Shown here in pieces: positions 11,107-26,025 of a stretch of DNA of 34,201 nt. How positions within the stretch are numbered: the first letter of the stretch is position 1; each line of letters opens with the position of its first letter. A model generated the notes under the pieces. That model searched no databases. It had not been told where the DNA came from and saw only the letters and a list, made by a program, of their open reading frames with translations. Location of the stretch: sequence record SRR20825010_1128; one strand, written 5' to 3'. The translations under genes were made by a program, and so were the position numbers.

Positions 11107-12729
11107 ATGAAAATCAGCACCGCAAGCCGCACCATGGCTTTAGGATCCCTTTTCTTTGCATTAACCGCACACGCCTCGCCAGGCCAGAAATCCACCGGCG
11201 ATTTACTCAACGATTTCTGGAGCCCGGATCGAATCAGTCCGTTTGAGTGTCGCTTTGGCATTCTCAATAGCACGCCATTTGGTCTGCCCCGCTGCATGCA
11301 GGCAAGCAACATCCAATACCACCTGGACCGGTTATACGGCATTGCCGAAGCCAATGATGGCAATCGCGCTGCCGGCTTACCTGGATACCAGGCGACGGTC
11401 GATTACGTTAAAACCACACTGGAGAGTGCGGGCTATGACGTGACCATCCAGCAGTTTCCTTTCAATGCCTTCTACCCGACCGGAGACGGCATTCTGCAGG
11501 CCACGGCACCCACTCCGACCGACTATGTATGGGAAGAGGACTTTACCTACCTGTCCCAGACGGAGCCGGGCGATGTGACGGGCATGGCCGTTGCCGTTGA
11601 CGTTCAACTCGGCCCCGACAATACCTCCACCAGTGGCTGTGAACCCGAGGACTTTACCGACTTCCCCGCTGGATCGGTCGCCGTCATCCAACGGGGAGCC
11701 TGCGCCTTCGGGCAGAAAGCAACCAACGCGGCCAATGCAGGTGCCGCGGGTGTGGTGATCTTCAACCAGGGCAACACGGAAGACCGCAAAGGCCTGATCA
11801 ACGCCACGCTCGGCGATGACTACGCCGGGGGAGTTCCCGTCGTGTTCACCACCTACGACATTGGCGCTGGCTGGGTTGAGCAGCAGGACCTCCAGCTCAG
11901 AGTCGTGACCAACGTGGTGAGAGAGCAAACCGAAACCTCCAACGTGATTGCCGAAACCAATCGGGGCAACCCTGACAACGTCGTGATGACGGGCGCTCAC
12001 CTGGATTCAGTGTTTGAAGGGGCTGGTATCAACGACAATGGCTCCGGCAGCGCTGCGCTTCTTGAACTGGCCCTGCAAATGAAACGGGCTCACCCCCGTA
12101 ATCAGGTCCGCTTTGCCTGGTGGGGTGCGGAAGAGGCCGGCCTGGTTGGCTCAACGTTCTACGTCAACAGCCTTTCCCAGGAAGAGAAGGACAAGATCAA
12201 GGTCTACCTGAACTACGACATGATTGGTTCGCCCAACTTCGGCAACTTTATCTACGATGGCGATGGTTCTGACTTCGATCTGGCAGGTCCTCCGGGATCA
12301 GCCGCCACGGAGGCGCTGTTCGAGAAGTACTTCAACCTGCGTGAAATAGCCTCAGAGGGCACGCAAATCAGCTTCCGCTCAGACTACGCGCAGTTCTTCG
12401 AGGACGGCATTGCGTTTGGCGGGCTGTTTACCGGTGCGGAAGTGCTGAAAACCGAAGAGCAGGCGGCCAAGTTCGGTGGCGAGGCTGGCGTTGCTTTCGA
12501 CCCCTGTTATCACTCAGCCTGTGACGACATCACCAACGTCGACGAGCTCGCTCTTGAGATCAACGGCGATGCTGCCGCCTTCGTGACCAGTTGGCTGTCA
12601 CTCTCAACGCGAGTGATTGACGAGGAAATCGCCGCAGCGGAAGAAGCGGAACCTGCGGCCGGTGCTCGCGCACTGCAGGCAGAGCCGCAACGCGACATTA
12701 CCCATTGGGGTGACAAGTGGATCAAGTAA
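11107..12729 (+). CDS. Secreted M28 aminopeptidase with PA domain (PaAP/SGAP-like)
   Basis: Signal peptide; GAHLDSV, GINDNGSG, WWGAEEAGL, NYDMIGSPN, RSDY, DPCYH zinc-ligand motifs; PA domain (IQRGAC.F..K). Confidence 0.93.
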   Translation: MKISTASRTMALGSLFFALTAHASPGQKSTGDLLNDFWSPDRISPFECRFGILNSTPFGLPRCMQASNIQYHLDRLYGIAEANDGNRAAGLPGYQATVDYVKTTLESAGYDVTIQQFPFNAFYPTGDGILQATAPTPTDYVWEEDFTYLSQTEPGDVTGMAVAVDVQLGPDNTSTSGCEPEDFTDFPAGSVAVIQRGACAFGQKATNAANAGAAGVVIFNQGNTEDRKGLINATLGDDYAGGVPVVFTTYDIGAGWVEQQDLQLRVVTNVVREQTETSNVIAETNRGNPDNVVMTGAHLDSVFEGAGINDNGSGSAALLELALQMKRAHPRNQVRFAWWGAEEAGLVGSTFYVNSLSQEEKDKIKVYLNYDMIGSPNFGNFIYDGDGSDFDLAGPPGSAATEALFEKYFNLREIASEGTQISFRSDYAQFFEDGIAFGGLFTGAEVLKTEEQAAKFGGEAGVAFDPCYHSACDDITNVDELALEINGDAAAFVTSWLSLSTRVIDEEIAAAEEAEPAAGARALQAEPQRDITHWGDKWIK

Positions 12730-12760
12730 CGCTTCTCGTTACATTATCCACTTAACGATG

Positions 12761-12789
12761 AGGGCCACTTTCAGGAGTGGCCCTTTTCT
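12761..12789 (+). terminator. Rho-independent terminator
   Basis: AGGGCCACT-TTCAGG-AGTGGCCCT followed by TTTCT. Confidence 0.75.
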
Positions 12790-12801
12790 GTGGCCCGGGC
12801 G

Positions 12802-13938
12802 TCATTGCCCACGAATGGCATGAATCAGCCGGGCTAGCTGTTCTGCACATTGTTCCAGGTTTTTCTGTCCATCCCGCATAGCCTCATCAAGCGTCATCGG
12901 TTCTGGCACAATAGAGAACGCTGCCGCCAATCCCAGGTCATGAAGGGCCGTCAAGTCACTGCCCACTTTTCCACCCAGGCCAAGAACCGGCACGCCGTGC
13001 TTTCGGGCCAAAGCTGATACACCTGCTGGTGTCTTCCCTGCCGCACTCTGGCCATCAATCGCCCCTTCCGCCGTGATTACAAGATCCGCCGAACGCATCT
13101 GTGTCTCAAGCCCCATGGTCTCCATCACCAGCTCGATTCCAGACTTCAGGCTGGCCCCCAGAATACCCGCAACCATTCCTCCAATTCCGCCTGCGGCACC
13201 GCTGCCCGGAAACGAACGTATGTCGTACCCGGATTTGTCCGCAATGTCCGCAAACCGGCTCAGGTTACGGTCCAGTTCGGCCACCTGTGCAGGAGTGGCC
13301 CCTTTCTGGGGGCCAAACACGGCTGCGGCGCCATCGGCGCCGTTCAGCGGGTTGCTGACATCACAGGCGACAACCAGGCGAGTGTTCTCCAGTGCTTTAA
13401 CGGCGGGGGACACGTCGAGACTCGACAACAAAGCCAGGCCGGCGCCACCTGCCGGAATTTCCTGACCGCCGGAGTCCAACAACCGGGCGCCAAGGGCCTG
13501 AAGAATACCAGCACCACCATCGGTTGTTGCGCTGCCGCCCAGACACATCACCAGGGTATCCGGTCTATGCTTCATGGCGGCCTTGATGAGCTCTCCCGTC
13601 CCCCGGCTGGTTGCCTTCATGGCATCCCTTCGGCCGGCAGGCACATGGTGCAACCCACTGCCCTCAGCCACTTCAACAATAGCAGTGCGGCCGTCGGCGA
13701 CCAGACCATATTGCGCCGTTACTGGATCACCCAGCGGCCCCGTTACGTCAGCACAATGCAGCGTCCCGTTTTGCGACTCTACCAGGGCCACCGTGGTTCC
13801 CTCGCCGCCATCGGCGAGCGGAACCTGCACCACCTCATCCGTCGGCGCCCCCCGACTCCAACCGCGCGCAATCGCAGCCGCCACCTCCTTGGCAGGCAGA
13901 CACTCCTTGAATGAGTCGGGCGCGATGAGGATCCGCAT
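12802..13938 (-). CDS. glxK: Glycerate kinase (GlxK/GarK family)
   Basis: IAPDSFKE, PLADGGEGT, LGGSATTDGG, FGPQKGA, GAAGG, GKTP motifs. Confidence 0.93.
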   Translation of the reverse strand: MRILIAPDSFKECLPAKEVAAAIARGWSRGAPTDEVVQVPLADGGEGTTVALVESQNGTLHCADVTGPLGDPVTAQYGLVADGRTAIVEVAEGSGLHHVPAGRRDAMKATSRGTGELIKAAMKHRPDTLVMCLGGSATTDGGAGILQALGARLLDSGGQEIPAGGAGLALLSSLDVSPAVKALENTRLVVACDVSNPLNGADGAAAVFGPQKGATPAQVAELDRNLSRFADIADKSGYDIRSFPGSGAAGGIGGMVAGILGASLKSGIELVMETMGLETQMRSADLVITAEGAIDGQSAAGKTPAGVSALARKHGVPVLGLGGKVGSDLTALHDLGLAAAFSIVPEPMTLDEAMRDGQKNLEQCAEQLARLIHAIRGQ

Positions 13939-13939
13939 A

Positions 13940-15283
13940 TTACAGTGCTACCAGTGAGGTCAGCCAAACCATTGAAATCGTGACCAGCCCCATAATCAGT
14001 GTTGCCGTGGTATGGGACTTATAGGCCGTAGCCACATCCATCTTGCTGAACTGGGAAACCACCCAGAAATAACTGTCGTTGGCGTGGGAAACCGTCATGG
14101 CGCCAGCACCGATGGCCATCACCGTCAACACGCGACCGAATTCCGAGTCCAGCCCCAGTTGCGTCATCAGGGGCGCCACAAGCGCCGACGTAGTGACCAG
14201 CGCAACGGTTGAAGAGCCCTGCGCGGATTTCAGCGCGGCGGCAACGAGGAACGGCATGATGACACCCAACCCAAGTGTCGAGAGCGTATCTCCAAGATAA
14301 TCCCCCAATGCCGTTTCAGCCAACACACTGCCAAAGGCCCCGCCCGCACCGGTGATCAGGATAATGGGTGCAGATACCTCCAGGCCCTTTTGCGTATGAC
14401 GGGCGAATTCATCCAGCTTTTGCTTGCCCTGAATAAGCATCAAAGCGAAGCCAAGGCCAATCATCAATGCGTTCAGAGGCTTACCAAGGAAATTCAGCGT
14501 CTCGTACAGAGCTCCCTCTCCGAGCGGAGCCGTCGGATAGCTCGCAACCGACCCCATACAAATCAATAGTATCGGGACAAAGATCGGTGCAAATGCAGCC
14601 CAGGGAGTCGGCAGCTCACCATAGTGCTCTCTGGCCTCCTCAAACGCCTCTTCTGCCAGCTCAAGCTCTGTGCTGCCCAGATTCCGGCTCCTGCTCGCCC
14701 AGAACAGGCCTGCCAGCGCGGCAATCAAAGCAAACACAAAGCCAACGGCAATAACCAGCCCCAGGTTGTCTTCCAGCCCCAGATTGCCGGCTGCCGCGAT
14801 GGGGCCTGGCGTGGGTGGAACCAGAGTGTGGGTTGCAAACAGCCCTGTGGAAAGGGCCACCGTCATGGCTACCGGTGACACACTGAGCTTCCTCGCCATG
14901 GATCGTTTAAGGCTGTTCAGGATCACGAAACCCGAGTCGCAAAACACCGGGATGGACACGATAAAGCCAACCAGCGACATCGTCAGCGTCGGGAAACGCT
15001 GGCCCAGCAGTTTGACGATACTCTCCGCCATGACAATGGCTGCACCGGTGCGCTCAAGTATGACACCGATGATGGTGCCTAAAACGATCACCAAACCGAT
15101 GTATCCCAGAATGCCGCCGAAACCCGACCTGATGGTACTCTCGATGGTGTCGATTGGCAGGCCAAAAGCAAATGCGGCCAGGAAAGAGGCCAGTAACAGG
15201 GTAATGAAGGGGTTCAGCTTGAGCTTGCTGGTGGCAAATACGATAAAAACGATCAATACCAGCAGAATCAGGACCAGATGCAT
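13940..15283 (-). CDS. GntP-family permease (probable glycerate/sugar-acid transporter)
   Basis: PVFCDSGF, PPTPGP, AQGSSTVA, SHANDSYFW motifs; 1 nt from glycerate kinase. Confidence 0.92.
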   Translation of the reverse strand: MHLVLILLVLIVFIVFATSKLKLNPFITLLLASFLAAFAFGLPIDTIESTIRSGFGGILGYIGLVIVLGTIIGVILERTGAAIVMAESIVKLLGQRFPTLTMSLVGFIVSIPVFCDSGFVILNSLKRSMARKLSVSPVAMTVALSTGLFATHTLVPPTPGPIAAAGNLGLEDNLGLVIAVGFVFALIAALAGLFWASRSRNLGSTELELAEEAFEEAREHYGELPTPWAAFAPIFVPILLICMGSVASYPTAPLGEGALYETLNFLGKPLNALMIGLGFALMLIQGKQKLDEFARHTQKGLEVSAPIILITGAGGAFGSVLAETALGDYLGDTLSTLGLGVIMPFLVAAALKSAQGSSTVALVTTSALVAPLMTQLGLDSEFGRVLTVMAIGAGAMTVSHANDSYFWVVSQFSKMDVATAYKSHTTATLIMGLVTISMVWLTSLVAL

Positions 15284-15408
15284 TCATACTCTCCGTTCAG
15301 TATTGTTTTCTATGCGTAGGGGACGGCATTCCTCGGCAGCTAGTTTAAAAGTTGACAGCACCCTGGTCGTTAGCGAAGAGAACAATTTTTTTGCTAATTT
15401 AGTACATT

Positions 15409-15430
15409 AAATTGTGGACTTGAACAATTT
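15409..15430. promoter_or_regulatory. Candidate CdaR operator upstream of gntP-glxK
   Basis: Palindrome AAATTGT-N8-ACAATTT (core TTGTGgacttGAACAA), resembling TTGTG..CACAA CdaR boxes. Confidence 0.45.
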
Positions 15431-15432
15431 TT

Positions 15433-16521
15433 CTAACGTGTTTCCAGGGCGAACTGGAGCACCAGCAAATCCCGGAGCACAAACGGAGACAGCCTGGTGA
15501 GCGCTTCGATTTTCTGCAGTCGATAACGCACCGTATTGGGGTGGATGTTTAGCTGATCAGCACACCGCTTTATTTCGCCGTCACAGTCAATGTAGCGTGA
15601 CAGCGTCTTGAGATAGAGTTCTCCCTGCCGATGCTCAACAAGGGGTTCAATCAGCGCCTGCAGTTCAGCTTGCTGCCAGTGTGGCGCAAGACTCTGCCAG
15701 AGCGCCGGGATTCGAAGCTCTTCATAGCGGAGAATGCTCGCTCCCGGTTTTCTCCTGCGCCCCACTTCCAGCGTCGCGGTAGCGGACTGATAACCGGCTA
15801 CGAAGTTCCTGGTGAATGATTTTCCTGTCGCAAGAATGACGTCGTCTTTGCCACGGGCAGCCAAGGTTGCCAGCAGGTTTTTGAACTCAGACTGGCCTGG
15901 CCCGGTTTCCGCGAAAATCAGGAGCTGCCTTGGCGACAGGCGAACGGTAAGCGCTGCTCGATGATGCTGCTCGAGATAGGGTGCCAACGGCACAAGCACC
16001 TGCTCCACCGCAACCTGGGTTGTTGCTTCGAGTATCAGCCCTATCCTCGGACAATCAGCTTCAATACCCAACTGCTCGAACCAGATTTCCGGCACGGTTT
16101 TGCCTTCACACGCCGCCAGCAGCACGTCTTCAATCTGTCGGCGTCGATGCTGCCCTGCTTCCAGCAATGCCGCCTGCTCGAGCATTAGCTCAGCGGTAAT
16201 ACGAACCAGATCCGCGTACTGGGAGACCTCTTCAGGCGCACCGGATATACCAACAACAGCCGCCATCTCCCCGCCAACGGTGACGGGCAGATTTACACCC
16301 GGACGGGTTCCCGAGTACGCGCCGGAGCGAGAGTCATCAATGATCAGTGGATGCCCACTGCTGGCGACAAGCTTCGCAGCTTCATGGTGATCACCGACCC
16401 GGCGAGGCTCGCCGGACGCGATAATAATACCGTCCGGCGTCATCACGTTGACGGACCAACCAATCGCTTGCATTGTGCGGTCGACAATTCGTTGCGCAGT
16501 TTGTTCGTCCAGAGTCAGCAC
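15433..16521 (-). CDS. cdaR: CdaR/SdaR sugar-diacid-recognition regulator
   Basis: AQRIVDRTM...VNVM...G.IIASG...R.G..HE N-terminal domain; C-terminal LNIHPNTVRYRL HTH; upstream of gntP-glxK. Confidence 0.9.
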   Translation of the reverse strand: MLTLDEQTAQRIVDRTMQAIGWSVNVMTPDGIIIASGEPRRVGDHHEAAKLVASSGHPLIIDDSRSGAYSGTRPGVNLPVTVGGEMAAVVGISGAPEEVSQYADLVRITAELMLEQAALLEAGQHRRRQIEDVLLAACEGKTVPEIWFEQLGIEADCPRIGLILEATTQVAVEQVLVPLAPYLEQHHRAALTVRLSPRQLLIFAETGPGQSEFKNLLATLAARGKDDVILATGKSFTRNFVAGYQSATATLEVGRRRKPGASILRYEELRIPALWQSLAPHWQQAELQALIEPLVEHRQGELYLKTLSRYIDCDGEIKRCADQLNIHPNTVRYRLQKIEALTRLSPFVLRDLLVLQFALETR

Positions 16522-16599
16522 GTGTTTTCGGGGCCCATGGCAGGTTCAGAGAAGCGTTCCAAAGGTATTGTGCCGTAGAGAACCCTTCCGCTCCTAATA

Positions 16600-17103
16600 G
16601 TGACCGGCCAAGTAGCGCGCGCCGCCAAAAATGGTGACATTATGCCGTTGGTTACCGCCTCGGACTCAGCGGGCGCCACCACGGTTGCCAATCCCGCTGC
16701 GGGACTGTTAGCGCCAGGAGAGACCACGACGGCAATCGTCAATACCAACAACGCCACAGCCAACACACAGCTTTCCGTCGTGGCCATGCTGCTGCCCACC
16801 AACGATGGCTTTCTGGCTCTCAACAGCCTGACAGTGCCCACCCTACCTGGCACTTACACCTACAACCTGAACGCCTACGACGCCGGCACCGAAGCCAATA
16901 CCGAATCCGCTGACACCGTGCCCGGTCCTGCTGCCAGTGGACTGGCCGAGGGTTTCAACGCCGATAGGGACGATGTTAGAAATGCCGTTTACGTTCACCC
17001 CGGAGTCGTTACCCAAGACGATGGACTGAATACCTCCACACTGGGAGGCAATCAGCGCTGGGATAACCCTATTGCGCGAGTACAAATTGAGCGAGTGCAG
17101 TAG
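16600..17103 (+). pseudogene. 5'-truncated Spondin_N-domain protein
   Basis: MLLPTNDGF, AYDAGTEAN, HPG, WDNP spondin motifs present; no signal peptide or N-terminal third; in-frame TAG at 16576-78; no clear RBS. Confidence 0.65.
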
Positions 17104-17109
17104 ACGATA

Positions 17110-17139
17110 GCCACAGGCACAACCCATTGTGCCTGTGGC
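17110..17139 (+). terminator. 13-bp perfect hairpin after the spondin fragment
   Basis: GCCACAGGCACAA-CCCA-TTGTGCCTGTGGC. Confidence 0.65.
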
Positions 17140-17148
17140 CCCCTCCTA

Positions 17149-17276
17149 CTGAGTAAGACCAAATACTCAGCGCGTTCCGACGAAATGTCAGTTATTCGTA
17201 ACTGAAGCGTGGTTTAGGCTCAGCGATAACCAGACTCAACGCATCGTATATGGCATTTCGATGCCGCTGAGTATTT
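17149..17276 (+). promoter_or_regulatory. Structured leader (candidate cis-regulatory RNA or operator array) upstream of the three-gene operon
   Basis: 12-bp perfect inverted repeat AAATACTCAGCG (17161-72) / CGCTGAGTATTT (17265-76), nested stem, two TTCG-loop hairpins, alternative pairings. Confidence 0.45.
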
Positions 17277-17295
17277 TCGTATGAGGAGCGCCACC

Positions 17296-18165
17296 GTGAA
17301 CCTCTTCGGTTTCCAGCACAGCATCATCAAGAACTGTGTAAACCTCGCCAAGTACCCGCTGACCCTGCCAGGTGACAGTGCCTGGAACGACACCATCGAC
17401 GGTATACGTCAGGATTTGGCGAGGGAAGGTTGCGCCATTCTTTCATCCTTTATTTTGCCGGAAGCTCTGGTACGTCTTGAGGCTGAAAGTTCAGCAATGG
17501 CGATCAACGCGTACTACAGGACGGAGATGGTTAACGCCTACAACATCGATATCAATACGGTGCTCCCCCGTTGGCACCCTGGCAACCTGACCATGGAACG
17601 TGGCAACGCATTTGTTGCACGAGACCAGATTCCCTCAACGGCTATAATCCAGCAACTCTACACCAACCCACTGTTCCAGAGTTTCATCGCAGATTGCTTC
17701 CAGCTTAAACGCGTCCACGAGCTGGCTGACCCGTTTTCCGGGCTCGTACTCAATGTCATCGCTCCCGGCAAAGAGCATCCGTGGCACTTCGATACGAATG
17801 AATTTACTGTCAGCCTGCTTACCCAGTCGCCAGAGGCGGGTGGCCTATTTGAATATTGCCCGCACATCCGCACAGCTCAGGAAGAGCACTTCAGAGACGT
17901 CAACGCTGTTCTCAGGGGCTCACGTAGCGGCCGTATTCGTAAGATCAACCTGTGTCCCGGCGACCTACAGCTCTTCATGGGGCGTTACTCCCTGCACCGT
18001 GTAAGCAGAGTCGAAGGCGCGACCACTCGACACTCCGCGATCTTTGCGTACAGCGAACGCAGGGGTGTTATTGGAAGCCCTACACGAACCCTTCAGCTAT
18101 TCGGACGACTGGCGCCAGTCCATACGGCAAGAGCTGTGGTAAGAAACGATCACTTGCTGGATTAG
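17296..18165 (+). CDS. Fe(II)/2-oxoglutarate-dependent oxygenase, BesD/HalD-like fold, hydroxylase type
   Basis: PWHFD (HxD) ... GG.FEY ... PGDLQLF.GRYSLHRV (distal His) ... R; GAGGAG RBS 7 nt before GTG 17296 (alternative ATG 17281). Confidence 0.8.
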   Translation: MNLFGFQHSIIKNCVNLAKYPLTLPGDSAWNDTIDGIRQDLAREGCAILSSFILPEALVRLEAESSAMAINAYYRTEMVNAYNIDINTVLPRWHPGNLTMERGNAFVARDQIPSTAIIQQLYTNPLFQSFIADCFQLKRVHELADPFSGLVLNVIAPGKEHPWHFDTNEFTVSLLTQSPEAGGLFEYCPHIRTAQEEHFRDVNAVLRGSRSGRIRKINLCPGDLQLFMGRYSLHRVSRVEGATTRHSAIFAYSERRGVIGSPTRTLQLFGRLAPVHTARAVVRNDHLLD

Positions 18166-18196
18166 CTATCAACAGGCTTTTGCTAACGGAGGCGCA

Positions 18197-19048
18197 ATGA
18201 ACGATACATCGCAACTGGACAACACCGGCAAAGTCTCACTGGATCACATCTATACCGCACCGGACCCCCGTGACTATTTCATAACGCTCCAGCGGCTTGG
18301 TTATTGCATCCCTCAACTGGCGCTGCCCCACTTTACCAACCTGATTGACGCTTATCGCCGGACTAGGCGAGTGTCGACGCCAACCATTGTCGACATTGGC
18401 AGCTCCTATGGCATCAATGCCGCGCTGATTCGCTACGGCACCAACATGAACAGGCTTTACAAACACTACGGCTGCCAGAGCGCTGGGGCTCTGTGCAGGG
18501 ACGCATTGATCAAACGCGACCGAATGTGCCTGACGGCGCAATCGTCAAAAGATCACAGCCGATGGATTGGTCTCGACTGCTCAGCCCCGGCACTAACGTA
18601 CGCGATCGACGCAGGGCTGTTAGACGATGTGATAAACGCGGACTTTGAGCATGACCAGCCCACGGCAGAGCAGCTTGCGCAACTTGAGAACACGGACATC
18701 GTTCTATCGACCGGTTGTGTGGGGTATGTGACGGAAAAAACCATCACGCGAATTATCGATGCCTCCGGAGAAAAACGCCCCTGGATGGCGCACTTTGTTC
18801 TGAGAATGTTCTCTTTCAAAGCGGTTGCTGACGCGTTGACTGTACGGGGCTACGAAACCAGAAAAGTGGCCGGCGTTTTCAGGCAACGTCGATTCGCTGT
18901 CCCACAGGAACAGGCGCGGGTGCTTGCCGCGCTGGCGGAGGCAGGCGTTGATTACCGGGGCGTTGAGGATGATGGTTGGCTCTATGCAGAACTGTATATC
19001 TCAATGCCAGCCAACGAAAAACCGATCCATGCCGACACAAGAGAATAG
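18197..19048 (+). CDS. Class I SAM-dependent methyltransferase-fold protein
   Basis: IVDIGSSYGIN (motif I), IGLDCS..AL (acidic motif II), ADFE, STGCVGY; GGAGG RBS. Confidence 0.75.
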   Translation: MNDTSQLDNTGKVSLDHIYTAPDPRDYFITLQRLGYCIPQLALPHFTNLIDAYRRTRRVSTPTIVDIGSSYGINAALIRYGTNMNRLYKHYGCQSAGALCRDALIKRDRMCLTAQSSKDHSRWIGLDCSAPALTYAIDAGLLDDVINADFEHDQPTAEQLAQLENTDIVLSTGCVGYVTEKTITRIIDASGEKRPWMAHFVLRMFSFKAVADALTVRGYETRKVAGVFRQRRFAVPQEQARVLAALAEAGVDYRGVEDDGWLYAELYISMPANEKPIHADTRE

Positions 19049-19050
19049 CA

Positions 19051-20868
19051 ATGCAAAAGCCTGACAAAACAGCCAACATGCCAGGGACTTTTTCCAAAGA
19101 GGCAGACCTGCCCCGAGTTAAACTTCCTGGATTGCACCAGAGTGCGGAGCACTTTCTCGACTGGTGTCGCCCCTTGCTCACCAGCGCAGAGTATCAGGAA
19201 ACCGTTACATCCGTGGCAGAATTCCTGAAGTCTGATAGTCCCTCACACACACTGTACTCAGCACTTGAGGCGTTCGATCAGCGCAGCGACGTATACAGTT
19301 GGCTCGACAAGTTCTGGCAATACCGATATCTGGGACGGCGTGACCGAATCGCCCTCAACGCCAATTTCTTCTTTCTTTTCAAGGAAACCGGAGAACCTTC
19401 TGTTCATCGGGCGGCAACGCTGGTTGATCGTGCGGTAGCCTATAAACAAGCGCTTGATTCAGGTCAGGTTCCGGTGCACATGCAGCGGGGAGCTCCCCTA
19501 TCCATGCGCCAGCACCAGTTTCTGTTTTCAACCACACGTATCCCCGGGGACCCGCTTGATACCGTACGCGCGCCATACACACCAGAGTGGCCGGGGCCGT
19601 CCAGTGCGCGGCATATTCTGGTGTTCCGTTACGGGCGAATGTTTCGAATGGACGTGCTGGACGTCGACGGTCAACAAATACCACAGCGTAAGATTCAGTC
19701 CGCAATCGAGATTATTCTGGCGGCTTCAGAGACACATGCAGCTGTGGACATGTCGGTTGGTCATCTGACGACCAAAGCCCGTGCCGAATGGGCAGAAAGT
19801 CGGCAACAGCTGCTGAGCATTTCCCCGATCAACGGCGAGTCTCTGGACAGTATTGAACGTGCCTTGTTCTGTCTGTGCCTGGACGACATTCAGCCCCAAA
19901 CCACCCTTGAAGCGTGCAACCAGTTGCTCAGAGGTAATGGCGGTAATCGCTGGTTCGACAAATCTCTATCCCTGGTAGTCATGGAGGACGGTAACGCCGG
20001 CATCAACATCGAACACTGTGAACTGGATGGCACGACCGCACTAAGCTTGGTAGACAGTCTAATGGAGACTCCTACAAACCCATCGAACTCATTGGGGCAG
20101 GACAACGACAGCTCCCCTACGCTGATATCACCCGTTGAATTCGTCCTGAATGACGCATTGAGAAAAGACATTCGGGAAGCCGCTACAGAATTCTCACATT
20201 ACGCAGCTAGCATGACATCTACCACGGTTTCACTGGACACTTTTGGAGCCAATCGAGCAAAACAGCTTCACGTCTCTCCGGATGCTTTGGTGCAATTGGC
20301 TTTCCAACTCGCCCATTACCGTGCGAAAGGTTTTATCGGGCCCACTTACGAGTCAATCGCCACCCGTCAGTACCGTCATGGGCGGACCGAGGCCATGCGC
20401 GTCGTCACTCCTGAAATACTTCAGCTTGTCATGGCTATGGAAAGCTGCGACACCAGCGACGAAGAATGTCGCAGCGCACTAGTGGCAGCAGCAAAAGCGC
20501 ATGTCGCAAGAGCAAAATCCTGCCAGATGGGTGACGCACCGGAACAGCTTTTATGGGAACTACAGCTCATACAACAGCGCGATGGCAAGCGTCTCGGCGC
20601 GCACCGACCACTGGCACTTTATGACTCTCCGGGCTGGCTCACAATGAGAACAGACGCCCTGAGTACCAGCTCGGCACCTTCAGAACACATTCAACATTTT
20701 GGGTTTGGTTCAACCAGTGAAACCTGCATTGGGGTGGGATATGTATTACTGCCAGGCAGTCTCAGAATCTACTTAAGCACAGCGAATACGGTTGCCAGCG
20801 AAATGGACGCTTTTGCCGAATCAATTCCCAAGGCGCTCGATGAGCTCTGCAACCTGCTGCAGCCATAG
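19051..20868 (+). CDS. Choline/carnitine O-acyltransferase family protein
   Basis: LPRV.LP N-terminus, NRWFDKS, catalytic EHCELDG, SPDA.VQLAFQLA, TYESIATRQY.HGRTE, LSTSS motifs; ATG 2 nt after the methyltransferase stop. Confidence 0.92.
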   Translation: MQKPDKTANMPGTFSKEADLPRVKLPGLHQSAEHFLDWCRPLLTSAEYQETVTSVAEFLKSDSPSHTLYSALEAFDQRSDVYSWLDKFWQYRYLGRRDRIALNANFFFLFKETGEPSVHRAATLVDRAVAYKQALDSGQVPVHMQRGAPLSMRQHQFLFSTTRIPGDPLDTVRAPYTPEWPGPSSARHILVFRYGRMFRMDVLDVDGQQIPQRKIQSAIEIILAASETHAAVDMSVGHLTTKARAEWAESRQQLLSISPINGESLDSIERALFCLCLDDIQPQTTLEACNQLLRGNGGNRWFDKSLSLVVMEDGNAGINIEHCELDGTTALSLVDSLMETPTNPSNSLGQDNDSSPTLISPVEFVLNDALRKDIREAATEFSHYAASMTSTTVSLDTFGANRAKQLHVSPDALVQLAFQLAHYRAKGFIGPTYESIATRQYRHGRTEAMRVVTPEILQLVMAMESCDTSDEECRSALVAAAKAHVARAKSCQMGDAPEQLLWELQLIQQRDGKRLGAHRPLALYDSPGWLTMRTDALSTSSAPSEHIQHFGFGSTSETCIGVGYVLLPGSLRIYLSTANTVASEMDAFAESIPKALDELCNLLQP

Positions 20869-20890
20869 GCTTATTGTTCCTGGGTGGCTG

Positions 20891-20950
20891 GCCCAGCTCT
20901 TAGTATGAGCTGGGCGTTCAAGTGTTTCGCTAACTCACCAAGCGCCCAGC
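20891..20950. terminator. Hairpin(s) between convergent genes
   Basis: GCCCAGCTC-N7-GAGCTGGGC (20891-20915); the 3' arm can alternatively pair with AGCGCCCAGC (20941-50). Confidence 0.5.
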
Positions 20951-20960
20951 CATTGATCAA

Positions 20961-21563
20961 TCAAGCAGGTAAATCCGTTATCTTGTCCACAACTGCGGCG
21001 TAAAGATCCCTCGTTGAAGCCAATGCGCCGTCATGCACTTCCTGCGCGGACAGTACCTTGCCATTTGCCGCCTTCAGGGAGCGGGTGGCCGTTGCACTGG
21101 CGACCACGGTAGGTGCATACCCCAGGTTGAACCCACCATGGGCGGTTGAGTTGATGCACATGTGCGTCATAAACCCTGCAAGGATGAGGTTTTTAATACC
21201 CTTAGCTTTGAGCTGTTCATCCAGATCGGTTTGCACAAACGAATTTGGAAAGTTTTTGGTAATAACCGGCTCGCCGTCTTTCGGCGCAACCGCGTCAGCA
21301 ATGGCGCCAATGCGAGCACTAACGTCATAGGGTGAGCCTGGGCCAGCATCGTGGCGAATATGAAACACCGGGATACCTTCGCCGCGGGCCAGTTCCAGAA
21401 GTTTCCGGCCCTCTTCCATGGCTTTGTCAGCCCCCTCAAGCTTCATGACGCCTTCAAGGTAGGTATTCTGGTAGTCGATCATGATCAGAGCAGATTCGGA
21501 AAGACTTGATGGGGCCAGGCTAAGGCCGTTCAGCTCTCTGAGCGTTGTTGATGCTGAGGTCAT
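20961..21563 (-). CDS. Cysteine hydrolase (isochorismatase family)
   Basis: ALIMIDYQN (Asp), ITKNFPNSF (Lys), AGFMTHMCINST (Cys) triad; GGAG RBS. Confidence 0.92.
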   Translation of the reverse strand: MTSASTTLRELNGLSLAPSSLSESALIMIDYQNTYLEGVMKLEGADKAMEEGRKLLELARGEGIPVFHIRHDAGPGSPYDVSARIGAIADAVAPKDGEPVITKNFPNSFVQTDLDEQLKAKGIKNLILAGFMTHMCINSTAHGGFNLGYAPTVVASATATRSLKAANGKVLSAQEVHDGALASTRDLYAAVVDKITDLPA

Positions 21564-21730
21564 TGGTGTTCTCCAGCGTCCGGCGTTTGGTTCTAAAGCA
21601 CGAGCGTATTCGATATGGCTCGTGCAGTCTATGAGACGAAGAAGCCGTTTCTATGAGTCTTTAGCACTACCTCGCTTTAGAATCAGATCGTTTTCACCAA
21701 TCGCTGCTCACAGGCAACATGACTATCGGT

Positions 21731-23482
21731 CTAGAACCGCGACCGCCCCCGCAATAGCACCTGCACCTGGTCAACGCTGTCGCCTCCCGCCAGCGGGAAG
21801 GCAAAGTCCAGGTGCAGCATTCGCTGTACTTCTATCCGGCTTGAAGCCAACCTGAGGCCAAAACCCACATCTGTCAGTACGCCGTCATCGGGTCCGTTAT
21901 TGCGACCATCATCAAACCAGGCTCTGCCTACATCGGTGAAAATCACACCCCCCATGCGAAACAGCTCGAAAGGGTGCCAGTCCGGGAAGTAACGGCGCTC
22001 CAGTGTCCACAGCGCTCTTCTGTTGCCCTGCTGGTAGTTGCTCGGATAACCACGAAGGCCGTTGTCACCGCCAATAAGAAGCTGTTGATCCACGGTCAAA
22101 TTGTGCGCTGCCGTGAACGACAGGTTGGTGTACCAACTGTTCCAGTCCACTGCCCCGCCATGAAAGTACTCCAGGCTCAGGGTTCCGATAAGGTTCTCGA
22201 AACGGTGCTGGTCAAATCGCCAGGTGCCGCTCTGACTGAACCCGTAGCTGGCGTAGTTGGTGTCAGTGGCCAGCAAAGCATCCCGGAAGTCCATATTCAG
22301 TACGGCGCGGTCTTCCGTCGCTCCAAGTCCCGGCGAGGAGTACCCCAGCTCGGTACGCCACACAAAGCCGTCCCGCACGTCCTCGACCCGTTGCAGACGA
22401 GTCAGGTTTGTCATTTCCCGGAAGCGGTTCTCACGGTAGTCAAACCCGACCCATGGGTAGCTCAGTGTCCGATCATCGGGCAGAAGGTCCAGATTGGTTT
22501 CATCCGGTAAGCGCTCAAACGCCCGGGCATCGTAGCGAAAACCGGCAAGCAGTCTTAACTGGCTGCCATTGCGTTCTGCCAGTCGCCAGCCGACATCAAC
22601 ACTGGCAAAATCGCGGTCCTGCCGATAGTCCGCAATTGCCTCCGCCCCCACATAGCGGGATTGTTCGCGAATGTCATCCTCACCACTCAGGCCAAATCGC
22701 CACTCCGCCAGCTCACTGTAGAATGGACGCTCAAGGTAGGCACTGCGACCGCGCCCATCACTGCGCTTATCGTAGGAAAGGCCTGCCTGCCAATGGGAGC
22801 CAAGCACGTTCGGATCGTCGAAATCGACACTGGTCTCGCTGCGGTCGGCATCTTTTTTGTGGGAAATCCCCACGCTCTTGCCGGAACCCAGGAAATTCGG
22901 ATCAGAAAGGCCGGTGTTGGTTTTATTCTCGCCTCCCGTCCTGGAAGCACCAACGCTCGGCAGTAACGTCCAGGTGTCACGTGCAAGGACAGTGACTTCC
23001 AGCTCATTCCCGCAAACGCGGGTAACACCGATCCACGCGGCCGTCAGGTACTCACTCTGCCGCAGTATTCGTTCGGATTCGTCCAGCGTACCCGGTTGGT
23101 AAACGTCACCTTCGTCGAACACCAACTGGGCACGCAGGGCCGATTTCCAGGTCGGGGTATTTAGAGCGTTCAGCGTGCGATAAAGAAAGTTGTCCTGTTC
23201 AGGATCGCTGGTATCGAAGATCGGGCGCCGAATAATGTTTACCCGGCCGATGCGGGCACCCTCTGGAATGTCCAGATCACTCTGGCGAGCCAGTTGATCC
23301 CGGGGCTGGTCAAGATCAATGGCGTCCGGCTGGATTTCGCTGACAATACAATTGTCGGTGTCAATTTGCGCCCAAGCGATCTGACTGAAAGAGAGAGTCC
23401 CAGCAATAAAGAGGGCTCGGCTTTGGAGCCGGAGGACACTATCGAGGCATTGAGTACGGGTCATCGTCTGGCCACAGAACAC
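21731..23482 (-). CDS. Omp85 (BamA/TamA-like) outer-membrane protein
   Basis: POTRA-like ESERILR segment, N.LG.G, GLRGY loop-6 motif, FTDVGRAW, GFGLR, C-terminal Phe; start may be ATG 23464. Confidence 0.82.
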   Translation of the reverse strand: MFCGQTMTRTQCLDSVLRLQSRALFIAGTLSFSQIAWAQIDTDNCIVSEIQPDAIDLDQPRDQLARQSDLDIPEGARIGRVNIIRRPIFDTSDPEQDNFLYRTLNALNTPTWKSALRAQLVFDEGDVYQPGTLDESERILRQSEYLTAAWIGVTRVCGNELEVTVLARDTWTLLPSVGASRTGGENKTNTGLSDPNFLGSGKSVGISHKKDADRSETSVDFDDPNVLGSHWQAGLSYDKRSDGRGRSAYLERPFYSELAEWRFGLSGEDDIREQSRYVGAEAIADYRQDRDFASVDVGWRLAERNGSQLRLLAGFRYDARAFERLPDETNLDLLPDDRTLSYPWVGFDYRENRFREMTNLTRLQRVEDVRDGFVWRTELGYSSPGLGATEDRAVLNMDFRDALLATDTNYASYGFSQSGTWRFDQHRFENLIGTLSLEYFHGGAVDWNSWYTNLSFTAAHNLTVDQQLLIGGDNGLRGYPSNYQQGNRRALWTLERRYFPDWHPFELFRMGGVIFTDVGRAWFDDGRNNGPDDGVLTDVGFGLRLASSRIEVQRMLHLDFAFPLAGGDSVDQVQVLLRGRSRF

Positions 23483-23594
23483 GGAAACTCACTATGGTGT
23501 TGATGTTACCCCACTATAGTGCCGATTCAGGTGTTCGTCCGGGATACTCGCATAAAACACCGTCCATACGTCCTGTACGTCATTGGTTAAAAGC

Positions 23595-23969
23595 TTATTC
23601 AACCAATCCGGACTGCGGGACAAGGCAGTTCATCGCGCTGAGGGCGACATCTCGGAACACCTGTTCCGAGGCGATCACACTCGGAAAACGATCATAAACC
23701 GCACGTCGGCAGGCCGATGTACGGGCCTCCCCTTCACTGACGCACGTCGAATGAGCCCCGGAGTCCGAATCCTGTCCAGTCGCGTCCTCACACAACACGG
23801 GGAGTTGGCGAACGACCCAGTCCATGGCTACGCTAAGTTCGACTGGATTATCCGCAAGGTTGGCAAAACGGCGGGCATCCACGGGTTGCGGGCGCTCCCG
23901 GGTCTGCTCCCAAAGTACGAACAACAGGGCTGCGGAAACCAATACGACCGTGACTTTTGGAAACTTCAT
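23595..23969 (-). CDS. Hypothetical exported or membrane-anchored protein with 4 Cys
   Basis: N-terminal hydrophobic stretch; gene-like ORF with GAAGG upstream. Confidence 0.65.
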   Translation of the reverse strand: MKFPKVTVVLVSAALLFVLWEQTRERPQPVDARRFANLADNPVELSVAMDWVVRQLPVLCEDATGQDSDSGAHSTCVSEGEARTSACRRAVYDRFPSVIASEQVFRDVALSAMNCLVPQSGLVE

Positions 23970-24079
23970 GGGGCCTTCTCAATCCGGTAAAACAGGCTCC
24001 GGATGATAAACGCTTGAGGCTGCCCTGTCCCGGTTTGCGCAACTATACTGTCTGGAATTTCTCAACGGAGCATGGGTAA

Positions 24080-24649
24080 ATGGCAACACTGATCGTTGGT
24101 CTGGTTTTATTTCTTGGCGTGCACTCTCTGTCCATCGTCAACGAACCGCTGCGCAATCGCCTGCACAACTCCCTTGGCGAAGGGGCGTTCAAGGGGCTTT
24201 ACTCGCTGGCCGCATTGGTCGGTCTGGTTCTGATCGTTTGGGGGTATGGCAACGCCCGCCTCGACCCGACCGTCATTTACACATCTCCAGGCTGGCTCCG
24301 GCACCTGGCCATGCTCCTTCTGATTCCGGTCTTTCCCCTACTGCTGGCCACCTATTTTCCGGGCAAGATCAAGGCAAAACTTGGGCACCCCATGCTCGTC
24401 GCGGTCAAGCTCTGGGCTTTGGCTCACTTACTCGCGAACGGGATGCTGCACGACCTGTTGCTGTTCGGCTCTTTCCTGGCCTGGGCCGTGGTGGATCGGA
24501 TCTCCTTGAAACGCAGAACCCAGCGGCCGATTGCGACCCTGCCGGCCAGCAAAGCGAACGATGCCATAGCGGTTGTTGGTGGCCTCGCGGTTTATGCGGT
24601 GCTGGTAATGTGGGCTCACCAATGGCTCTTCGGGGTGGCGCCAGTGTGA
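24080..24649 (+). CDS. nnrU: NnrU-family membrane protein
   Basis: GL.LFLG.HS, KGLYSL, HPML..VKLWA.AHLL.NG, H.WLFGV.P motifs. Confidence 0.88.
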   Translation: MATLIVGLVLFLGVHSLSIVNEPLRNRLHNSLGEGAFKGLYSLAALVGLVLIVWGYGNARLDPTVIYTSPGWLRHLAMLLLIPVFPLLLATYFPGKIKAKLGHPMLVAVKLWALAHLLANGMLHDLLLFGSFLAWAVVDRISLKRRTQRPIATLPASKANDAIAVVGGLAVYAVLVMWAHQWLFGVAPV

Positions 24650-24653
24650 CACC

Positions 24654-25547
24654 CTAAACACGCAACTCTGGCAGGTGGCTGGCCAAATGCCCTAGTTTGT
24701 CCGGGTTGCGCACGACATAGACCGACTGGATACGGCCATCCACCACATCCAGTGTCGTGATCTGTGGCAGCCCATCCTGTTCGATGGTCAACCATCCCGG
24801 TAGCCCATTCACGAAAACGGCTTTAACCCACCGAGGGCTGGGCGATGCAGACTTGCGCGCCACGCCTTCAAAGAACCGGCTGATCCTGTCGGCACCAAGA
24901 ATCAGGCGCCGCGCTGCAATCCTCTTTCCCCCACCATCGGTATGCAGTATGGCGTTCTCACTCAGCAGCGCCTTCAACGTTGCCACATCGCCACTGCGGG
25001 CGGCGTCGAAGAATCGATCGGTCAACTGATTATGCTCGCTTGAACTCACCTTATAGCGCGGGCGCTCAGCCTGCACACGTTTCCGGGCGCGGCTTGCGAG
25101 TTGGCGGCAACTGGCTTCACTGCGTTCCAGGCTCACAGCGACCTGGCTGAAATCCAGCCCAAATACATCGTGCAACAGGAATGCAGCACGTTCCAGGGGA
25201 GACAACCGCTCCAGCGCCAGCATCAGGGCAAAGGACACATCACTGGCAAGCGCCTCGGCGCCCGCCGGAGTGTCCTGACTTTCGACTATAGGTTCCGGCA
25301 GCCAGGGACCATCATAGACCTCCCGCTGCCGATGAGCGGCGCGAAGGCGATCAAGACAAAGCCGGCTGGTGACCATGGTCAGGTAGGCCCGCACATCATC
25401 GACTGACAGGTGATCGGCATGGTGCCAACGCAGGTATGCATCCTGCACCACATCCTCTGCCTCCGTCACCGAACCCAGCATGCGGTACGCGACGCCTGTC
25501 AGGTATCGGCGCCAGTGATCAAACTGATGCGCGGGCTGTTCATTCAT
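24654..25547 (-). CDS. sigJ: ECF41 / SigJ-type sigma factor with C-terminal SnoaL-like domain
   Basis: AYRMLGS..EAEDVVQD, GPWLPEP, DGGGK and RNPDKL, the ECF41 signature motifs. Confidence 0.92.
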   Translation of the reverse strand: MNEQPAHQFDHWRRYLTGVAYRMLGSVTEAEDVVQDAYLRWHHADHLSVDDVRAYLTMVTSRLCLDRLRAAHRQREVYDGPWLPEPIVESQDTPAGAEALASDVSFALMLALERLSPLERAAFLLHDVFGLDFSQVAVSLERSEASCRQLASRARKRVQAERPRYKVSSSEHNQLTDRFFDAARSGDVATLKALLSENAILHTDGGGKRIAARRLILGADRISRFFEGVARKSASPSPRWVKAVFVNGLPGWLTIEQDGLPQITTLDVVDGRIQSVYVVRNPDKLGHLASHLPELRV

Positions 25548-25572
25548 GGCAATTGGTTCCCGGCGTACTTGG

Positions 25573-26025
25573 TTACAGTTTACGGTCATTCGGGTGAACC
25601 GCCCGAAAGCCCACGCTGATCCGGTTCCAGACGTTGATCGCACCGATCAGCAACGTCAGGTCGACGAACTCCTTCTCGGTGAAACGCGCTCGCCCCTGCT
25701 CGTAATCCTGACTGGGGGCACCGGTGTCAGCCACGTTCGTCAGTGCTTCGGTCCAGGCCAGGGCAGCCCGCTCACGAGGTGTGTAGAGCCCGGACTCACG
25801 CCAAGCGGACAGCAGGTAGAGCCGTGCTTCACTTTCACCGGCTTTGCGGGCATCGCTGGTGTGCATGTGCAGGCAATAGGCGCAACCGTTAATCTGGGAT
25901 GCCCGGGTTTTCACCAAGTGGATGAGGCTGTGTTCCAGCCCACAACTGCCAACGTACTCCTCCAGCCGGGTCATTGCGGCGATGGCATCCGGGGAAGCCT
26001 TGTAGGCATTCAATCGCGTTTCCAT
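25573..26025 (-). CDS. Carboxymuconolactone decarboxylase / AhpD-family protein
   Basis: RASQINGCAYCLHMH (CxxC), WRES, ERAAL, IN.WNR; GAGGAG RBS. Confidence 0.93.
   Translation of the reverse strand: METRLNAYKASPDAIAAMTRLEEYVGSCGLEHSLIHLVKTRASQINGCAYCLHMHTSDARKAGESEARLYLLSAWRESGLYTPRERAALAWTEALTNVADTGAPSQDYEQGRARFTEKEFVDLTLLIGAINVWNRISVGFRAVHPNDRKL

Follow-up and report, generated by a model that had tools for sequence, protein, structure and literature searches.

The window, the whole stretch of 34,201 nucleotides that was analysed, carries three co-oriented genes on the plus strand. HYD (17296-18165) encodes a HalD/BesD-family Fe(II)/2-oxoglutarate hydroxylase, MT (18197-19048) a protein with a class I SAM-dependent methyltransferase fold from an undescribed subfamily, and CAT (19051-20868) a member of the choline/carnitine O-acyltransferase family. 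For HYD an alternative ATG start at 17281 is available, from which the open reading frame (17281-18165, plus strand) counts 294 aa. The GTG at 17296 is the more likely start, since it lies 7 nt downstream of an AGGAG (17284-17288) and the database protein P0121, 99% identical to HYD, comprises 289 aa. The MT frame (18197-19048, plus strand) follows after a gap of 31 nt (18165 to 18197) with a GGAGG ahead of its ATG and encodes 283 aa. Only 2 nt separate MT from CAT (19048 to 19051), whose frame (18976-20868, plus strand) yields 630 aa from a TTG and 605 aa from the ATG at 19051.

The trio is flanked by two hairpins. Upstream, a hairpin with a 13-bp stem (17110-17139, plus strand) is found 3' of a spondin-domain gene and forms the boundary of the trio; with -27.8 kcal/mol and a z of -7.6 its folding was equalled by none of 200 shuffles. 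The downstream hairpin (20891-20915) has a 9-bp stem and 12-nt arms with 92% complementarity, lies where the CAT gene and the isochorismatase gene converge and scores a z of -3.2 on the minus and -1.5 on the plus strand. A T-run is absent from both, and a simple scan, with the sigma-70 consensus for promoters, revealed neither a terminator at these hairpins nor a sigma-70-like promoter. Co-orientation, gap lengths, intact key motifs and flanking hairpins are all as given in a preliminary description of this DNA.

The three genes are present in RNA libraries. Contigs from two runs of one study, X17 (17237-21268) and X18 (17240-21582 in three pieces, the first being 17240-17912), extend across all of them, which is compatible with the co-transcription assumed earlier; contigs of this kind cannot prove a single transcript, and their 3' part overlaps the convergent gene. 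Their 5' ends at 17237-17240 (plus strand), about 57 nt upstream of HYD, mark a possible transcription start, which contigs can likewise not prove. Depth over 16400-17107 is zero in both runs and the upstream hairpin lies outside the contigs of both. Run X15 showed coverage everywhere and is uninformative, and from run X22 no reads were placed.

The host of the trio is a Marinobacter, in which the genes are part of an accessory stretch of about 9 kb (12731-21716) that is missing from the nearest genome. There, the counterparts of window positions 12000-12730 (97% identity) and 21717-26000 (99%) abut at 2583496/2583497. Further genes of this stretch encode a glycerate kinase, a GntP permease, a CdaR regulator, the spondin-domain protein and the isochorismatase-family hydrolase. 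No tRNA was found in the window and no match to mobile-element families among the scanned open reading frames of the accessory stretch.

Conservation and distribution of the trio

With MT alone as query, 80 genome loci were collected, 79 from actinomycetes and one from Marinobacter. In 79 of them HYD, MT and CAT follow one another in this order on a common strand; the lone exception is a Frankia, where HYD is located elsewhere in the genome. Similarly, both neighbours of MT are present in 33/36 metagenome contigs with room on both sides. Natural fusions of both kinds, MT-CAT and HYD-MT, were also observed: among 29 longer relatives of MT, 26 (782-965 aa) contain PF00755 and two PF23169. One fusion, P0244, was checked and is a single uninterrupted frame of 902 aa in locus L073, and the fusion P0261 (546 aa) shares 56% identity with HYD and 53% with MT. 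Family sizes match as well (2,433 protein clusters for MT compared to 2,311 for HYD), and all three window proteins have diverged to a similar extent from those of the actinomycetes (53-59% identity). The trio is thus a conserved functional unit, and its co-occurrence elsewhere, on which the preliminary description had let its proposal depend, is observed. A chance adjacency or an annotation artefact joining three functionally unrelated genes is refuted by the conserved order in genomes and metagenomes and by the fusions, and the similar divergence of all three proteins speaks against it as well, so that we regard it as practically excluded.

A further conserved partner was not found, other flanking frames each being common to at most 27 of the 80 genome loci. 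Across these loci the trio has no conserved transporter, dehydrogenase or regulator at its side, and likewise no NRPS, PKS or other tailoring gene and no aldolase or aldehyde dehydrogenase. The cassette is widespread in actinomycetes and no rarity of the window genome: its range covers hundreds of Streptomyces, Actinomadura, Amycolatopsis and related genomes as well as a marine Marinobacter lineage.

Choline/carnitine acyltransferases are textbook eukaryotic enzymes. Their sporadic occurrence in bacteria, pointed out before, is reflected in the sampled genomes, where Carn_acyltransf genes were found in 3/301 Actinomycetota and 2/401 Pseudomonadota. We know of no role assigned to these rare bacterial homologues, and full-text literature searches returned none either. 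The same searches gave no published description of the HYD-MT-CAT cassette, in accordance with its earlier designation as a candidate undescribed pathway.

Enzyme families and active-site residues

HYD matches the HalD model PF23169 (E 2.2e-13, 50.6 bits, cut-off 26), the only other Pfam match being a weak one to PF22814, and in the PDB a lysine hydroxylase (7jsd/9oet, E 4e-4). When its AF2 model (pLDDT 73) was compared by Foldseek, ranks 1-40 as listed were all chains of BesD, HalA, HalB, HalD or 'Hydrox' (6nie, 7u6h-j, 7jsd and entries beginning with 9oe) with E 9e-13 to 6e-9 and TM 0.62-0.70 on target. HYD thus shares fold and Pfam family with these proteins, and its closest folds all belong to enzymes of free Lys or Orn. 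In contrast, identity to the solved members amounts to 15-21% only, a profile of the trio-type HYD subfamily misses the solved proteins in the PDB, and the model, with 294 aa, exceeds the matched chains (244-256 aa) by about 40 residues.

The residues H169-F-D171, H239 and R250 are invariant in 80/80 sequences (the window and 79 loci). In the alignment, the counterpart of H169-F-D171 in the solved lysine hydroxylase is H-W-D, the HxD being shared with the lysine 4-hydroxylase homologue 'Hydrox'. Because of this invariant HxD, HYD is assigned as a hydroxylase, and a halogenase, in which H-x-G/A replaces the carboxylate iron ligand, is ruled out. Directly behind the HxD follows Thr172 (80/80), whereas the solved lysine hydroxylase has Asp, and the Asp after HxG/D in BesD presumably binds the alpha-amine of the substrate. 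The substrate of HYD may therefore differ from an ordinary alpha-amino acid. In Lys/Orn-specific members, according to PMC10041140, Arg83 in the N-terminal beta-hairpin of HalB is among the residues that hold the alpha-amine and alpha-carboxylate of the free amino acid. This residue is not alignable to HYD, where R107 (80/80) and R114 (79/80) are conserved candidates for such a hairpin Arg.

Searches against Pfam and NCBIfam gave no match for the window MT, and of 17 aligned members of its family 15 gave a weak one to Methyltransf_12, with a best E of 1.7e-4. MT is assigned as a class I Rossmann-type methyltransferase by its fold and by these weak matches of relatives, with a predicted dependence on SAM. 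In place of the standard motif I (D/E-x-G-x-G-x-G) an invariant variant, D-I-G-S/C-S-Y-G, is found and is followed by an equally invariant G-L-D127; D66, G68 and G72 of DIGSSYG as well as G125 and D127 of GLD are kept in 81/81 sequences. A sequence-level match to any solved methyltransferase was not obtained, including the betaine-forming class I N-methyltransferases of sarcosine/dimethylglycine and phosphoethanolamine, and O-, C- and N-methyltransferases tie in the fold scores. A circumstantial link of the family to betaine metabolism is given by solo MT relatives (33-36% identity), which in four actinobacterial loci from few related genomes adjoin a LysR gene and a GbcA-like Rieske oxygenase; the latter matches the glycine betaine monooxygenase model NF058607 with E 7e-119, below the cut-off of the model. 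MT probably founds a new family of betaine-forming methyltransferases.

CAT is a full-length member of Carn_acyltransf (PF00755, model positions 3-572 of 574, E 3.4e-155, 518 bits, cut-off 22.3) and a true homologue of CPT2 (E 3e-61), CrAT (5e-56) and ChAT (5e-54) from the PDB. E321-H322, D326-G327 and T539-S540 are conserved in 80/80 sequences and S538 in 79/80. The family motifs E-H and S-T-S are thus both present, with the catalytic His322 aligned to the E-H of CPT2 and CrAT. Shared with these enzymes is also the carboxylate triad of Tyr433 (80/80), Ser435 (77/80) and Thr446 (80/80), which aligns to Y-E-S...G-R-T of CrAT and CPT2 and corresponds to what we take to be Y452/S454/T465 in CrAT numbering. 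Overall, the positions aligned to the carnitine site of CrAT are nearly all kept (Trp84, Tyr93, His322, Tyr433, Ser435, Thr446, S-T-S and Phe552).

Two positions differ from CrAT. In the alignments with CrAT and CPT2 alike, Gln499 (80/80) occupies the place of CrAT Arg518, the Arg of the D-R-H motif, which matters for the Km of carnitine. Because this replacement is found in 80/80 sequences, CAT is, judged by its pocket residues, not a canonical carnitine enzyme. Phe550 (80/80) is aligned with CrAT Met564, where CPT2 has Gly; as this position presumably governs acyl length, the Phe suggests a short acyl group. A choline acetyltransferase type was considered and rejected: ChAT has Val at the carboxylate-binding Thr and Asn at the Arg518 position, whereas Thr446 is kept in 80/80 sequences and position 499 is Gln.

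Proposed product and alternative readings

In the eukaryotic carnitine system the Fe/2OG hydroxylases TMLH and BBOX work on a substrate N-trimethylated by way of SAM, and CrAT is the carnitine acetyltransferase. The trio unites the three chemistries of this system, methylation from SAM, hydroxylation by an Fe/2OG enzyme and O-acylation with acyl-CoA as donor, in one bacterial operon with genes that are at times fused. The parallel to TMLH and BBOX drawn in the preliminary description holds for the chemistry and fails for the family: both belong to the TauD type, HYD to the HalD/BesD free-amino-acid hydroxylases and halogenases (PF23169). Furthermore, no counterpart of HTML aldolase or TMABA dehydrogenase is conserved beside the trio. 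With its hydroxylase in PF23169 and no further conserved gene, carnitine biosynthesis of the eukaryotic type was rejected.

We consider the trio a self-contained biosynthetic cassette for one small metabolite, with a short-chain O-acyl hydroxy-betaine resembling acetylcarnitine as product, and give this reading a probability of roughly 0.5. HYD would hydroxylate a small amino-carboxylate, either a free amino acid or an omega-amino acid, at an aliphatic carbon, and MT would methylate the same substrate, most probably exhaustively on nitrogen, to a betaine. With acyl-CoA as donor, CAT would then place a short acyl group, acetyl or propionyl, on the new hydroxyl. Plausible roles of such a product are those of a compatible solute or an acyl/CoA buffer. 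The earlier methylate-hydroxylate-O-acylate interpretation is partly supported, the functional unit being borne out by 79/80 loci and the fusions.

Since the fold of MT ties with O-, C- and N-methyltransferases, MT might instead O-methylate a carboxyl or second hydroxyl group or C-methylate its substrate. CAT would then acylate a hydroxy-amino acid that is charged through a free or mono-methylated amine, and the cassette would yield a small specialised metabolite or building block in place of a carnitine analogue. The missing Arg518 equivalent in CAT and the closest folds of HYD, which work on plain Lys or Orn, point in the same direction, and carnitine-acyltransferase domains of fungal PKS use non-quaternary alcohols. 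On the other hand, CAT retains the Tyr/Ser/Thr triad and Phe552 of the carnitine pocket, every characterised stand-alone family member to our knowledge uses a quaternary ammonium alcohol, NRPS, PKS and tailoring genes are not conserved nearby, and solo MT relatives adjoin the betaine oxygenase, which leaves this product rather doubtful. At the opposite end, the cassette could form authentic L-carnitine and acetyl-L-carnitine de novo by C3 hydroxylation, N-trimethylation and acetylation of a simple omega-amino acid such as 4-aminobutyrate, with enzymes that are not orthologous to the eukaryotic ones. The nearly complete carnitine site of CAT, the lack in HYD of the Asp that follows HxD in lysine hydroxylase and the sufficiency of three enzymes, with no other conserved partner needed, would fit. 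Such a route is nevertheless quite unlikely in view of Gln in place of Arg518 in 80/80 sequences, as this Arg is important for the carnitine Km.

The preliminary description had also allowed for a catabolic role by oxidative demethylation. CAT would salvage the acyl groups of imported acylcarnitines or acylcholines, the reaction of carnitine-type acyltransferases being reversible, and the amine set free would be demethylated or hydroxylated by the oxygenase; Fe/2OG enzymes are capable of oxidative demethylation. This is disfavoured because the SAM-dependent MT, an obligate partner, is fused to either neighbour and because no transporter, dehydrogenase or regulator is conserved. As the HalD/BesD relatives from the PDB searches are also all C-H hydroxylases or halogenases, we consider salvage very improbable.

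The two partner enzymes found in essentially every case provide a fixed genetic context for the bacterial acyltransferases, and the product of this widespread orphan pathway is directly testable with three genes. The cassette may bring to light a carnitine-like metabolite of prokaryotes that serves in osmoprotection or acyl buffering. In the most far-reaching case, which we regard as unlikely, many actinomycetes and a few marine gammaproteobacteria would produce carnitine, acetylcarnitine or a compound very close to them de novo, starting from a simple amino acid and using a three-enzyme route that evolved independently of the eukaryotic pathway. The route would consist of a hydroxylase of the HalD type, a novel methyltransferase that forms betaines and a bacterial carnitine acetyltransferase. 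If this is true, prokaryotes would have their first carnitine-type biosynthesis, and a bacterial Carn_acyltransf enzyme would for the first time have a function assigned to it.

For the HalD/BesD hydroxylases, the trio probably adds a new substrate class. Relatives of HYD are labelled 'HalD/BesD family halogenase' or 'arpA protein' by NCBI. Going by the iron-binding motif, the name 'halogenase' does not fit an HxD enzyme, and the HxD evidence corrects it for this enzyme.

Arrangement and conservation of the three genes

In the window, which comes from a Marinobacter, HYD (an Fe/2OG enzyme of the HalD/BesD family), MT (a class I SAM-methyltransferase fold) and CAT (a choline/carnitine O-acyltransferase) are encoded in a row on the plus strand. 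The HYD reading frame occupies 17281-18165 (294 aa counted from ATG), MT 18197-19048 (283 aa) and CAT 19051-20868 (605 aa counted from ATG; the mechanical ORF opens at TTG 18976). For HYD, the GTG at 17296 used in the preliminary description is the likelier start compared to ATG 17281; AGGAG lies seven bases ahead of it, and the database protein P0121, with 99% identity to HYD, has a length of 289 aa. HYD and MT are separated by 31 nt, with GGAGG ahead of the MT ATG, and MT and CAT by 2 nt. Upstream, a hairpin with a 13-bp stem (17110-17139, −27.8 kcal/mol, z −7.6) follows the spondin-domain gene; downstream, a 9-bp stem (20891-20915) is found between CAT and a convergent isochorismatase-family gene. 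A T-run is absent from both hairpins, and simple scans revealed no sigma-70 promoter. ORF and fold checks thus reproduce the layout described before, namely three co-oriented genes with gaps of 31 and 2 nt and flanking hairpins.

To search for related loci, one genome per species was scanned with an alignment of MT relatives. From at least 600 stretches with at least 589 confirmed MT relatives, the best 80 loci were analyzed. In 79 of these best 80, MT is flanked on its own strand by HYD immediately before it and CAT immediately after it. The sole exception, a Frankia locus, has HYD (57% identical) on another contig. One of the 80 is a Marinobacter locus with 94-95% identity to the window proteins; the remaining 79 belong to actinomycetes (Streptomyces, Actinomadura, Kitasatospora, Spirillospora, Amycolatopsis, Saccharopolyspora, Actinokineospora, Thermomonospora and Frankia) and share 53-59% identity in all three proteins. 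Using six reference loci for comparison, we found no flanking ORF outside the trio that is common to more than 27 of the best 80 loci. The neighbor reaching this number is a glutamine synthetase encoded right after the trio, on the other strand (9780-11321 in L007, and relatives). Pfam searches with picked actinomycete flank ORFs, most of them in the wrong frame, returned only glutamine synthetase, Ser/Thr kinase and GFO/IDH oxidoreductase.

An independent metagenome set of 80 loci gave a similar picture. Both neighbors occurred in 33 of the 36 loci with room for both, HYD in 53/58 and CAT in 39/42 with room for the respective gene. The five loci that lack HYD despite sufficient room all carry MTs of at most 46% identity. 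The MT and HYD families are also of near-equal size (2,433 and 2,311 clusters at an E of 0.001 or better). Among 29 longer MT relatives, 26 contain PF00755 (782-965 aa), two contain PF23169 (546 and 577 aa) and one matches no family. P0244 is a single 902-aa ORF of Streptomyces specialis (L073, 7004-9712) whose C-terminal 591 residues are 59% identical to CAT, and in P0261 a HYD part (56%) is followed by an MT part (53%). A fused trio was found in only one of the best 80 genome loci. The co-occurrence of the trio elsewhere is therefore borne out by genomes, metagenomes and fusions alike, and the three genes almost certainly form a functional unit.

In one actinomycete with the trio (L103, contig G540:C88), the MT match at about 6470-7273, with 47% identity, is interrupted by one in-frame TAA; either decay of this copy or an error in sequencing may be the cause.

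Families and active sites

HYD scores 50.6 bits with the Pfam family HalD (PF23169), whose cut-off is 26. Its sequence match in the PDB is a lysine hydroxylase (7jsd/9oet, E 4e-4), and the 7jsd enzyme is a lysine 4-hydroxylase according to PMC10041140. With an AF2 model of HYD (pLDDT 73), Foldseek ranks 1-40 as listed were all BesD, HalA, HalB, HalD or 'Hydrox' chains (E 9e-13 to 6e-9, target TM 0.62-0.70), followed by prolyl-hydroxylase-type proteins with E 4e-8 or worse. A PDB search with the HYD subfamily profile was poorer than the single-sequence search and gave 6gem alone (E 0.008). H169-x-D171, H239 and R250 are invariant in 80/80 sequences, and because of the invariant HxD motif HYD is assigned as a hydroxylase and not as a halogenase. 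In NCBI and UniRef, many HYD relatives bear the name 'arpA protein' or that of a 'HalD/BesD family halogenase'. The motif argues against the latter label; a literature search for 'arpA' yielded no lead.

The BesD/Hal relatives of HYD act on free Lys or Orn by hydroxylation or halogenation, and HYD is only 15-21% identical to them. Whereas the lysine hydroxylase has an Asp right after HxD, HYD has Thr172 there in 80/80 sequences, so its substrate may be one without a normal alpha-amine. Arg83 is given as the carboxylate binder of HalB in PMC10041140; a search of the text of two preprints for contact residues of BesD yielded none.

CAT, a full-length member of the Carn_acyltransf family (PF00755, E 3.4e-155), has CPT2 (E 3e-61), CrAT (5e-56) and ChAT (5e-54) as its nearest solved relatives. 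The catalytic His322 is kept in 80/80 sequences. Tyr433 (80/80), Ser435 (77/80) and Thr446 (80/80) align to the carnitine-carboxylate triad, and S-T-S, Phe552 as well as Trp84 and Tyr93, aligned to a Trp and a Tyr of CrAT, are also retained. In contrast, the Arg518 of the CrAT D-R-H motif is replaced by an invariant Gln499, and CrAT Met564, a Gly in CPT2, by an invariant Phe550. Since the Met564 position gates acyl length, the bulky Phe550 predicts acetyl or propionyl as the acyl group. We read the residue pattern as pointing towards a carnitine-like, non-canonical acceptor, presumably a hydroxy acid with a cationic nitrogen nearby. The predicted complex of CAT and MT scored 0.00 in both runs, which is neither for nor against binding.

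Proposed pathway and alternatives

The cassette would be self-contained and biosynthetic. HYD would hydroxylate a small amino-carboxylate, MT would methylate the same compound, probably on nitrogen, and CAT would then O-acylate the hydroxyl group from a short acyl-CoA, giving an acetylcarnitine-like product. We put the probability of this chemistry, i.e. hydroxylation, N-methylation and short-chain O-acylation of a small amino-carboxylate, at about 0.5.

A link of the MT family to betaines is offered by 'solo' MT relatives. At four actinobacterial loci (L098, L099, L100 and L102; e.g. L099, 3711-8035), solo MTs with 33-36% identity have as neighbors a LysR gene and the genes for a carbon-nitrogen hydrolase and a Rieske oxygenase; asparagine synthase B is encoded nearby. 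The best NCBIfam match of the oxygenase is GbcA, a glycine betaine monooxygenase subunit (NF058607, E 7e-119; at 397 bits under the 670-bit cut-off). The tie of the MT family to betaines via these loci, which may represent a separate betaine-related locus, is circumstantial. No such lead came from the solo MTs of five Pseudomonadota genomes; the neighbors of a proteobacterial solo MT (L089: DUF4153, M15 peptidase, trypsin-like protease, carbonic anhydrase) offered none either. A PDB search with the MT profile returned 3cc8 alone (E 0.4). 

The main rival, a non-betaine product with MT methylating oxygen or carbon, is possible and clearly less probable. The boldest reading, in which the cassette turns an omega-amino acid into carnitine or acetylcarnitine itself, we consider doubtful. 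A catabolic role, named as an alternative in the preliminary description, is unlikely because the other two enzymes come with a SAM methyltransferase as obligate partner, in some cases as a fusion. Chance adjacency of HYD, MT and CAT is refuted.

No paper on the HYD-MT-CAT cassette was found in the open full-text literature, and the earlier statement that no characterized bacterial pathway has this composition stands within that range. A literature search on acetylcarnitine in Streptomyces gave no lead. All three enzymes can be placed in known superfamilies, but within the same range no description was found of their combination or of the MT and HYD subfamilies.

Expression, distribution and history

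Four RNA-seq runs were compared. Contigs from X17 and X18, two runs of one study, are identical to the window and cover 17237-21268 (X17) as well as 17240-17912, 17922-18295 and 18311-21582 (X18). Both runs have zero depth over 16400-17107, which argues against plain DNA carry-over. A 5' end about 57 nt ahead of GTG 17296 is a possible candidate, as derived from contigs that are no proof of a single transcript. X15, even across the whole stretch, and X22, without reads, are uninformative. Over 20869-21582, contigs also extend beyond CAT, crossing the downstream hairpin and entering the isochorismatase gene that converges on CAT; one of them ends at 21582, about 19 nt past the start codon of that gene. 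Convergent transcripts may have been merged by unstranded assembly, or read-through may occur.

Few bacteria have a protein that matches the family model PF00755. Such a protein was found in 3/301 evenly drawn Actinomycetota genomes, two of which carry the trio, and in 2/401 Pseudomonadota genomes (both 26-29% identical to CAT, no partners nearby), while the 14 control genomes had none. In the genus to which the window belongs, a CAT was found in 1/37 genomes. Bacterial Carn_acyltransf proteins outside the trio (L191 in G687, L192 in G209, L193 in G355; 26-29% identical to CAT) have no HYD or MT nearby and seem to be separate, equally uncharacterized subfamilies; the neighborhood in G687, the only one of the three scanned, contained nothing informative.

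In G001, the genome nearest to the window, positions 12731-21716 are missing and the two flanks join without a gap, which places the trio in an accessory stretch of about 9 kb. This stretch also holds a glycerate kinase (12802-13938, minus strand) forming a module with a GntP permease and a CdaR regulator, the spondin-domain protein (16600-17103) and the isochorismatase-family hydrolase (20961-21563, minus strand). The window contains no tRNA, and no mobile-element family was detected among the accessory-stretch ORFs scanned. In a quick ML tree of MT, with solo MT relatives as the root, the trio-type MTs fall into a single clade (SH-aLRT 97). The Marinobacter group, which includes two metagenome proteins with 75% identity (support 100), branches beside the actinomycete and soil clade (95) as its sister and not from within it. 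This placement thus speaks for either an ancient divergence or a transfer from a lineage not sampled here, and against a recent gain from one of the sampled actinomycetes.
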